Shown: positions 36,410 through 36,752 of the stretch, piece after piece
Layout of the letters: each line of letters opens with the position of its first letter
Numbering within the stretch: the first letter of the stretch is position 1
Notes under the pieces: generated by a model
What the model was told of the DNA's origin: nothing
What the model saw: the letters and a program-made list of their open reading frames with translations, nothing else
Databases searched by the model: none
IMG/VR virus record: IMGVR_UViG_2778261056_000006
Coordinates: 1-42,371 of that record
Reading direction: 5' to 3' (one strand)
DNA length: 42,371 nt
Source: a virus
Lineage: Duplodnaviria; Heunggongvirae; Uroviricota; Caudoviricetes
Translations under genes and position numbers: made by a program

Positions 36410-36542
36410 TCACTGTCGTCATTTCGTTAAGGAAGAAGTTATGAATGAAAAAGTTTTTGGAGCAAAAGCCATTTAGACTCCAAAGGTTTTTGCGCTTGTT
36501 TACCTGGTAATTGGCATTTTCCTCGTTTTTTCTGTTGTCTCA

Positions 36543-36689
36543 ATGAATTTCACGGCGATTACGATATCGGTGGTAAGTGCATTGCTTTTACGTGTGCTTT
36601 ATGAGTTCCTAATGAACTCATTCAAGGCGACTGAGCATCTTTACAGGATCGCCGAATCTCTTGACCGTAATGGATCCAGCGATAAATAG
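36543..36689 (+). CDS. small hydrophobic ORF (48 aa) in AT-rich insert within the tail operon; uncertain
   Basis: MNFTAITISVVSALLLRVLYEFLMNSFKATEHLYRIAESLDRNGSSDK; one predicted TM helix; no clear SD; found by manual translation. Confidence 0.25.
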   Translation: MNFTAITISVVSALLLRVLYEFLMNSFKATEHLYRIAESLDRNGSSDK

Positions 36690-36713
36690 ATAAGTCATTT
36701 CAGTGCATATGTA

Positions 36714-36738
36714 AACCGCCGACATGGCGGTTTTTTTA
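36714..36738 (+). terminator. intrinsic terminator inside the tail gene cluster
   Basis: CCGCC-gacat-GGCGG followed by T7, 15 nt before the SD of the next tail gene. Confidence 0.7.
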
Positions 36739-36752
36739 TTTCCGGAGGCGTG

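Follow-up and report, generated by a model that had tools for sequence, protein, structure and literature searches.

A probable amber-disrupted moron in a hairpin-bounded cargo slot of the Mu-type tail operon of an Escherichia coli prophage

The subject of this report is the junction between the tape-measure protein (TMP) gene and the Mu N-like baseplate gene in a 42,371-nucleotide stretch of viral DNA (IMG/VR record IMGVR_UViG_2778261056_000006, Caudoviricetes), referred to below as the window, which is an E. coli prophage with lambdoid regulation through a Q antiterminator and with a Mu-type contractile tail. The junction holds a small gene interrupted by an amber codon, followed by a hairpin of the intrinsic-terminator type. 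The reading preferred here, to which a probability of about 0.75 is given, is that this gene is a moron disrupted by the amber codon, that it sits in a slot for exchangeable cargo bounded by a hairpin resident at the junction, and that the hairpin is passed by Q-dependent read-through in lytic growth. In a lysogen a sigma-70 promoter lying within the final 70 nt of the TMP open reading frame (ORF) would drive transcription of the small gene, which would end at the resident hairpin to give an RNA of about 365 nt. In lytic growth Q-modified RNA polymerase would read through the hairpin, so that the baseplate genes are expressed. In the window copy of the gene, codon 12 has been mutated from TGG to TAG. 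The features of the junction are as follows.

34481-36409, plus strand: TMP gene, 642 aa, an ORF placed by the gene order sheath-tube-chaperone-TMP-N; left flank of the slot

36410-36712, no strand assigned: inserted low-GC cargo segment, 303 bp, 39.3% GC, absent from closely related prophages

36441-36689, plus strand: single 82-codon gene for a predicted two-helix membrane protein, with an internal amber, from one-frame translation and homologues; Shine-Dalgarno sequence AAGGAA at 36429-36434

36474-36476, plus strand: amber codon TAG, codon 12 of that gene, TGG (Trp) in intact homologues, from DNA alignment

36543-36689, plus strand: 48-aa ORF, being the C-terminal 48 codons of the 82-codon gene (helix 2 and the conserved tail), from translation and homologues

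36713-36741, plus strand: intrinsic-terminator-like hairpin AAACCGCC-GACAT-GGCGGTTT with U-run, from fold, pattern scan and comparison; right border of the slot

36753-38156, plus strand: Mu N-like 'DNA circularization' tail/baseplate gene, 467 aa (PF07157, E=2.8e-30); right flank of the slot

A first-pass annotation, made from the letters of the window, had described about 340 bp of AT-rich DNA between the TMP and N-like genes and had proposed that it was an inserted module. Both points are borne out. The TMP-to-N gap in the window measures 343 bp, and the GC content of positions 36410-36712 is 39.3%, compared with 53.5% for the N-like gene, 55% for the sheath and tube genes and 51.1% for the window as a whole. 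The segment is present in some closely related prophages and absent from others: in OW1E2, AW1.7 and ES8, whose N-like genes are 99.4-99.7% identical to that of the window, the TMP-N gap is 67-68 bp, so the segment is not common to all relatives. The same hairpin sits inside this short gap, and all variation between the window and its close relatives ends sharply at 36713/36714, the first base of the stem. Identity to closely related prophages falls from more than 99% in the N-like gene to 82-89% in the TMP gene, and approximately the last 180-280 nt of the TMP gene are mosaic and co-inherited with the cassette; homology of the window TMP gene to insert-less prophages ends at 36227 (OW1E2) and at 36129 (AW1.7).

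The relatives were obtained through E. coli genomes and through protein-guided locus searches; a DNA search of the phage collection with the junction and with the 3.7-kb TMP-N region gave zero matches. The resulting survey comprised 153 loci, made up of one genome per species, IMG/VR loci and loci fetched earlier. Their TMP-N gaps fall into several size classes: about 50 loci have a short gap of 11-69 bp, 38 have one of 343-344 bp, five have an intermediate gap of 99-273 bp (with no ORF of at least 40 aa in any of them) and about 47 have 0.5-3 kb, the gap being unmeasurable in the remaining 13. Morons have been defined (PMC3594210, after Juhala et al. 2000) as extra DNA of deviant GC content with a promoter and a terminator of its own and with expression from the prophage. 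On a moron reading relatives with an empty slot are to be expected, and they exist: in about 45 related loci the TMP-N gap is 44-69 bp, so that the cassette is far from universal and constitutes extra DNA between genes that are otherwise adjacent. Its GC content likewise departs from the 53-55% of the flanking tail genes. On these comparisons the AT-rich segment of about 300 bp is a genuine insertion, an optional cassette that fits the moron paradigm in being extra DNA of deviant composition.

Within this segment the first-pass annotation had listed two small ORFs, one of 11 codons starting with a strong Shine-Dalgarno sequence at ATG 36441 and one of 48 aa at 36543-36689. Both exist as described, but they are not separate: they are pieces of one gene, because they lie in the same frame with only the TAG at 36474-36476 between them. 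Translation of 36441-36689 in one frame gives MNEKVFGAKAI-(stop)-TPKVFALVYLVIGIFLVFSVVSMNFTAITISVVSALLLRVLYEFLMNSFKATEHLYRIAESLDRNGSSDK-(stop), 82 codons of which this TAG is the sole internal stop. The ATG at 36441 has its AAGGAA about 7 nt upstream and is followed by 11 sense codons before the TAG, while the ATG at 36543 is Met-35 of the longer gene, lies 66 nt past the stop and has no Shine-Dalgarno sequence. It might still be supposed, from the strong ribosome-binding site of the first ORF and the hydrophobic product of the second, that the pair consists of an 11-codon leader peptide governing expression downstream and an independent, toxin-like membrane peptide of 48 aa. This is now largely refuted and retains only the slightest probability: the frame is shared, the one codon that separates the two is TGG in intact homologues, the second ATG lacks a ribosome-binding site, and it is the whole 82-aa protein that is conserved, at 51-96% identity.

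Among 5.8 billion proteins searched, four homologues (P0001-P0004) are intact at 82 aa, have Trp at position 12 and are 91-96% identical to the window translation; further homologues (P0007, P0009 and P0012-14) are at 51-73% identity. Every homologue for which the genomic context was fetched lies between a TMP gene and an N-like gene in the same sheath-tube-chaperone-TMP-N-P cluster, with another cargo gene between the TMP gene and the homologue in two cases. In E. coli, Enterobacter and others this same slot holds intact Trp-12 homologues 96% identical to the window protein, and homologues at 51-59% identity always stand immediately before the hairpin and the N-like gene. Among divergent members of the family the ratio dN/dS is 0.08-0.23 wherever dS is unsaturated; the family is under purifying selection, and the frame is a real protein-coding gene. 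A gene on the minus strand was considered and rejected: the ORFs there are short and unconserved and the promoter-like site is weak, whereas the plus-strand frame is under purifying selection. The ORFs in question are at 36439-36543 and 36618-36725, and the site, antisense to the small gene at window 36516-36543, is the sigma-70-like TTGAGA-16-GAAAAT (9/12).

The hydropathy profile of the 82-aa protein has two hydrophobic stretches, followed by a polar and strongly conserved tail, LRVLYEFLMxSFKATEHLYRIAE. AlphaFold2, supplied with the family alignment, models a helical hairpin with helices at residues 3-34 and 37-77 (mean pLDDT 81), and on these predictions the protein would be located in the inner membrane. 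Foldseek against viral structures returned generic helical hairpins only (E>=0.2). The family is small: an exhaustive profile search of 1.84 billion proteins yielded 24 cluster representatives only. It is remotely related to DUF4282 (PF14110), a family of small integral membrane proteins, which shares with it a length of about 80 aa, two hydrophobic helices, and an N-terminal (F)xxxITPK and a C-terminal RxxxE...FK..E.L.RIA motif. The window protein, its stop entered as X, scores 22.7 bits and P0001 scores 20.9, both below the gathering threshold of 27 bits, whereas 19 of 21 remote relatives match DUF4282 at E<=0.01 (best 1e-11). The window-type protein, at 21-23 bits, is therefore a remote relative of DUF4282 rather than a formal member, in a small branch linked to phage tails. 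The gene product also matches phrog_12129, a group of unknown function.

At codon 12 the window differs from the intact alleles by TGG to TAG. A sequencing error is excluded, since the same TAG is found in 21 complete genomes and in many metagenomic contigs. In the 38 cassette-bearing loci of the survey codon 12 is TAG with a run of five T's (T5) downstream in 24, TGG in nine, TAT (Tyr) in two, and TAG with an extra T in three. These counts are not a ranking of alleles overall: eight of the nine TGG loci were fetched by means of the intact protein, and the IMG/VR search retained the loci closest to the window's N-like gene, which biases the apparent predominance of the amber allele there. The cassette is present in 22 complete E. 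coli genomes in RefSeq; codon 12 is TAG in 21 of these and TAT in the other (NCTC9040), so that TGG does not occur among them. The NCBI annotation pipeline PGAP annotates nothing in the amber copies, and leaves the 343-bp gap empty in 21 of these 22 genomes. The genome of E. coli NCTC9040 (NZ_LR134247.1) contains two copies of the region, one of which has the TAT (Tyr-12) allele, annotated by PGAP as a hypothetical protein; a protein on record from this genome, P0008, shows an internally frameshifted version.

The three loci with an extra T restore the reading frame in a different way, which depends on the following feature.

36445-36491, plus strand: overlapping +1-frame ATG (36445) and T5 run (36487-36491), site of a 'rescued' allele, from P0006 and DNA alignment

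An additional T in the T5 run joins the +1-frame ATG, which lies 4 nt past the normal ATG and shares its Shine-Dalgarno sequence, to the rest of the gene. The product is the 81-aa protein P0006, with a new but still basic N-terminus, in which the TAG is read within Phe-Arg. This allele was found in three independent assemblies (survey loci L016-L018, 3001-3246), with a cassette otherwise equal to that of the window, and 19 contigs with it are on record. Both the TAT and the extra-T alleles carry the window haplotype (Asn-59, Gly-78, Ser-79), unlike the Trp alleles, and because they share it they are most simply derived from the amber allele. As a rough reckoning rather than a formal test, two ORF-restoring events among about six distinguishable haplotype changes exceed what chance would easily give, and they suggest that the full-length protein is useful and the amber form defective. 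The amber allele would most likely yield just the 11-aa peptide, with at most traces of read-through or re-initiated product, and the window copy is probably a null or strongly reduced allele.

It might be argued instead that the amber allele is functional as it stands, through a 48-aa fragment made by re-initiation or through read-through of UAG, and that its near-fixation reflects selection for a reduced dose. In keeping with this, TAG is found in all but one of the complete E. coli genomes with the cassette, the downstream frame remains open in almost all amber alleles, and the most conserved motif of the family falls within the 48-aa part. Re-initiation at ATG 36543 would, however, have to occur with no Shine-Dalgarno sequence and 66 nt past the stop, and the fragment would lack helix 1; the two independent mutations that restored a full-length ORF on the amber haplotype suggest lower fitness of the amber form; the near-identity of the amber alleles is consistent with the recent clonal spread of one phage lineage; and the downstream substitutions in amber alleles are all non-synonymous (F27Y, F27C, T64S and a stop-to-Q change). 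A functional amber allele is accordingly judged distinctly improbable.

The hairpin and U-run that the first-pass annotation had placed just before the next Shine-Dalgarno sequence were found at 36713-36737, upstream of the GGAGG at 36744-36748 and the ATG at 36753 with which the N-like gene begins (a GTG at 36750 is in the same frame). The stem (36713-36720 paired with 36726-36733) has 8 bp with five G-C pairs and encloses the 5-nt loop GACAT, and seven T's occupy 36731-36737. The evidence for a real hairpin is comparative. Taken singly it is unremarkable: a pattern scan of 12 kb gave nine terminator-like sites against 12 expected, which does not exceed chance, and local folding gives a z-score of no more than -0.9 in size. 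Across the survey a GC-rich hairpin with a T-run is found in about 140 of the 153 loci, or 80 of 87 distinct upstream sequences, compared with a mean of 15 (maximum 25) in shuffled sequences. Its distance from the start codon of the N-like gene downstream is 14-58 nt (mostly 14-34) whether cargo is present or not, and its inner stem occurs in 17 different forms. In 21 distinct hairpins with 4-nt loops aligned in true register, pairs 1-6 are always Watson-Crick, and double substitutions occur in eight of the nine stem pairs, against two to six in slid controls. The register-true count was made in Python, and the percentage of paired positions that it gives is circular, the hairpins having come from a pairing search. 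RNAalifold on a MAFFT alignment of 31 junctions returned zero pairs, an alignment artefact of the variable loops (MAFFT on windows of fixed length was likewise register-shifted), and an Rfam scan of 36200-36900 gave sub-threshold chance matches only, so that none of the known RNA families is represented there.

The same hairpin design is found in the cultured phages SfV, phiNP, BZS1 and GF-2, and it is absent from Mu. The only relatives in the Enterobacterales that lack it are three loci from Erwinia and Hafnia (L054, L055 and L060), in which the TMP and N-like genes are 11-12 nt apart, as in Mu. The terminator had originally been taken as a sign of insertion; this cannot be upheld, as the hairpin is also present in relatives that have no insert and is conserved across genera. 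By this comparison it is a standing feature of the TMP-N junction in the phage group, not something brought by the cassette.

A terminator in the middle of a late structural operon had also been called unexpected. That surprise is lessened by the gene listed next, and a terminator inside a late operon is tolerable because the phage encodes this Q-like antiterminator.

17333-18115, plus strand: Q-like antitermination protein gene (phrog_304, E=1.4e-103), upstream of the lysis, head and tail genes

After the Q-like gene come genes for holins, for an endolysin and for an Rz-like spanin. RNA polymerase that has been modified by Q does not stop at terminators in lambdoid phages, as is stated for SfV-type phages (PMC3851460). 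Terminators within a tail operon also have precedent in the RefSeq record of phage HK97, in which four putative ones are annotated there, one of them directly after the gp15 moron and 12 nt before the TMP start. In the window the space between the hairpin and the Shine-Dalgarno sequence of the N-like gene is too short for a promoter, from which it would follow that baseplate expression must come from read-through.

What the hairpin does in phages with an empty slot is a separate matter: it could insulate the baseplate genes in a lysogen, stabilise the upstream mRNA, or act as an attenuator. The last two possibilities, of which attenuation had also been raised in the first-pass annotation, can be put as an alternative explanation for the hairpin in general, namely that it is an attenuator or mRNA-stability element which, by partial termination or by 3' protection of the sheath-tube-TMP message, lowers the dose of baseplate proteins regardless of cargo. 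A cargo-independent function is what the retention of the hairpin, with compensatory changes, in empty slots (gaps of 32-69 bp) would imply, and between the hairpin and the Shine-Dalgarno sequence of the N-like gene a promoter for that gene would not fit. A Q-like antiterminator is nevertheless present, and Q-modified polymerase ignores intrinsic terminators (PMC3851460); moreover, a position after the TMP gene does not match the stoichiometry, since the TMP is itself a low-copy protein and it is sheath and tube that are abundant. We regard such a role as unlikely, if still worth keeping in view, and it is in any case compatible with a cargo slot bounded by a resident hairpin rather than exclusive of it.

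Expression of the small gene in a lysogen would need a promoter, for which there is one candidate.

36339-36367, plus strand: sigma-70-like promoter, -35 ATGATA, 17-nt spacer, -10 TATAAT, by consensus match, within the last 70 nt of the TMP ORF

No other site in the 12 kb of tail region scanned matches better (10/12), and transcription is predicted to start near 36374. It is found at the same position in all nine distinct junctions with the small gene and also in the type with a 244-aa cargo protein, whereas in 38 distinct empty junctions every score is below 9. The -10 hexamer ends in T in 12 of 16 distinct cargo-bearing junctions and in none of 12 empty ones (Fisher p=6.6e-5, uncorrected for shared ancestry). 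The hexamer coincides with the Tyr-Asn codons of the TMP C-terminus (...K-T-Y-N...), which read TAT AAT where cargo is present and TAT AAC, TAT AAA or TAC AAC in all phages with an empty slot; the AAT/AAC difference is synonymous, both being Asn. This pattern would fit a promoter selected for cargo expression.

Seen across the other loci of the survey, the space from the TMP stop codon to the hairpin is a slot for cargo: many relatives have nothing in it, and others carry unrelated accessory genes of low GC. The longer gaps contain some 25 or more unrelated ORF families, mostly on the strand of the tail genes, with 26-43% GC against about 50% in the flanks. Pfam identifies among them toxins of the YafQ/ParE, HigB and HicA types, beside each of which a small ORF is taken to be the antitoxin, and a P22-Ant-like antirepressor (ORF6N + P22_AR_C). 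Many other cargo proteins have, as judged by eye, signal-peptide-like or membrane-like N-termini and no family match. PADLOC on eight other cargo representatives gave nothing convincing, the one weak LmuB-like match being probably spurious. In Photorhabdus and Xenorhabdus (L028, L031, L035, L064, L066, L029 and L065) the slot holds HigB/HigA-, YafQ/RelB- and HicA/HicB-like pairs as well as P22-Ant-like antirepressors, some cargo being on the opposite strand and the gaps reaching 3 kb. A low-GC gene for a protein of 244-253 aa, with a signal-peptide-like N-terminus and zero Pfam or PADLOC matches, recurs in E. coli GN05064 (L003 2055-2789; 244 aa) and in L099, L100, L102, L037 and L111, and in L111 a diverged version of the small DUF4282-like gene comes after it. 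In Edwardsiella phage GF-2 (L160 3417-5325) an immI-like block of two Arc-like repressors and an Ant antirepressor lies downstream of the homologue, within the tail cluster.

Such a slot recalls the hotspots for accessory and defence genes in temperate phages of the P2 and P4 type (Rousset et al. 2022, as cited in PMC11364771), which, so far as that citing account goes, likewise have a fixed position between conserved structural genes and many unrelated, exchanged, low-GC cargos, toxin-antitoxin pairs among them. It differs from them in that the cargo tested from the TMP-N slot gave no convincing PADLOC defence match. The tail module of Mu itself, in which gp42 (TMP) is followed by N (gp43), has the homologous order of sheath, tube, chaperone, TMP, N, P, gp45 and onward, but only 4 nt separate its TMP gene from N, and there is neither hairpin nor cargo. 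Late transcription in Mu proceeds from C-activated late promoters and not by Q antitermination.

The closest parallel to the small gene is gp15 of HK97, a moron reportedly treated by Juhala and co-workers in 2000 and by Cumby and co-workers in 2012. This small inner-membrane protein, encoded beside the TMP gene, has been shown experimentally to block genome entry in a tail-dependent manner (PMC3594210). Like gp15, the window gene encodes a small membrane protein (predicted in the window) and is inserted beside the TMP gene among the late tail genes of a temperate coliphage that is regulated by Q; each of the two has a low GC content and is missing from relatives; and each stands directly before a hairpin and U-run, some 12-20 nt ahead of the next structural gene. 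They differ in that gp15 lies upstream of the TMP gene and the window gene downstream, and in that gp15 has 62 aa with one predicted helix compared with 82 aa and two helices. The exclusion activity of gp15 is experimental, whereas the window copy carries a nonsense codon and is known from sequence alone, and the terminator of the window type is present also in relatives with an empty slot. Because of this analogy with a protein encoded beside the TMP gene, the best guess for the native role of the 82-aa protein is superinfection exclusion, that is, a prophage-expressed block to the entry of incoming phage DNA, although this is put forward tentatively and is itself somewhat doubtful.

Several observations weigh against parts of the reading set out above. 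With regard to exclusion, BLASTP of P0001 against HK97 gp15 found no alignment at E<=100, PADLOC on the small protein gave zero matches, and no paper on DUF4282 was found in the literature searched. The near-fixation of the amber codon in complete E. coli genomes (21/22) could mean that it is neutral or even favoured and not defective. The 684-bp and 859-bp cargo types have a different hairpin despite an N-like gene that is 99% identical, which means that a terminator can also travel with its cargo and so is not purely a 'backbone' element. The promoter is a consensus match whose association with cargo is uncorrected for shared ancestry and may in part reflect AT-richness as a confounder. Finally, distant homologues have no consistent sigma-70-like site upstream, and the homologue of phage GF-2 lies directly against the stop codon of the TMP gene; the pattern among these distant homologues would fit late co-expression with the TMP gene as well as, or better than, expression in a lysogen.

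This last point leads to a further alternative, in which the small protein is a late-expressed accessory partner of the TMP, for example one that blocks re-infection or modulates the membrane in lytic growth, and not a lysogenic moron at all. Across very different TMPs the family is always downstream of the TMP gene, or of that gene and other cargo, which such a partnership would explain, as it would the close abutment in GF-2, the absence of a convincing sigma-70 site from several distant homologues and the co-inheritance of the TMP 3' end with the gene. Against this, the gene is dispensable, many close relatives being without it and the amber allele being widespread in prophages that otherwise look intact; it is low in GC, as acquired cargo is; and in the window-type cassette it has a near-consensus promoter, in which the critical base goes with whether cargo is present. 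On balance this alternative is considered improbable, if still a live one, and the gene is better viewed as a moron that has been acquired by the slot and, in the window, disrupted.

It is possible to combine these strands into a more ambitious proposal, in which phage DUF4282-like proteins would be TMP-linked blockers of DNA entry, co-inherited with a matched TMP 3' end; the allelic series (Trp to amber to Tyr or to an extra T) would reflect repeated switching off and on under selection; and the conserved terminator would mark a dedicated landing site for cargo in Q-regulated Mu-type tail modules. As a whole this must be rated speculative and rather unlikely. The more immediate consequences are modest. 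The gap left blank by PGAP holds a nonsense allele of a conserved gene for a small, probably membrane-bound protein. The TMP-N junction of SfV-like and Mu-tailed lambdoid prophages is a cargo slot, bounded by a conserved terminator-like hairpin, across the Enterobacterales and a handy source of genes for lysogenic conversion or anti-phage functions. The amber, Tyr and frameshift-rescue alleles form a natural series for probing a DUF4282-type protein, from a family that has no assigned function. Current understanding is not overturned by any of this: the moron is an ordinary one, and what may be new is the slot, as no description of a TMP-to-N slot in the Mu-type tail modules of SfV-like phages was found in the literature searched.

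Three further observations concern other parts of the window and its relatives. Between the Q-like antiterminator gene and the holin genes lies a 299-aa ORF (18687-19586; phrog_11747, function unknown). The interval from Q to the lysis genes is the classic position for morons in lambdoid phages, occupied by stx in Stx phages and by a moron in SfIV. The TMP gene is strongly mosaic in this phage group (L006 1163-2971; L155, L157 and L159), some variants having a lytic transglycosylase (SLT) domain; the 642-aa TMP of the window has zero Pfam matches. Lastly, a gap of 141 nt separates the tail assembly chaperone gene (34061-34339) from the TMP start (window 34340-34488), and in it some gene callers annotate a 44-aa ORF (34354-34488) that looks like the usual frameshift extension of a tail chaperone, of the G/GT or E/E' type.

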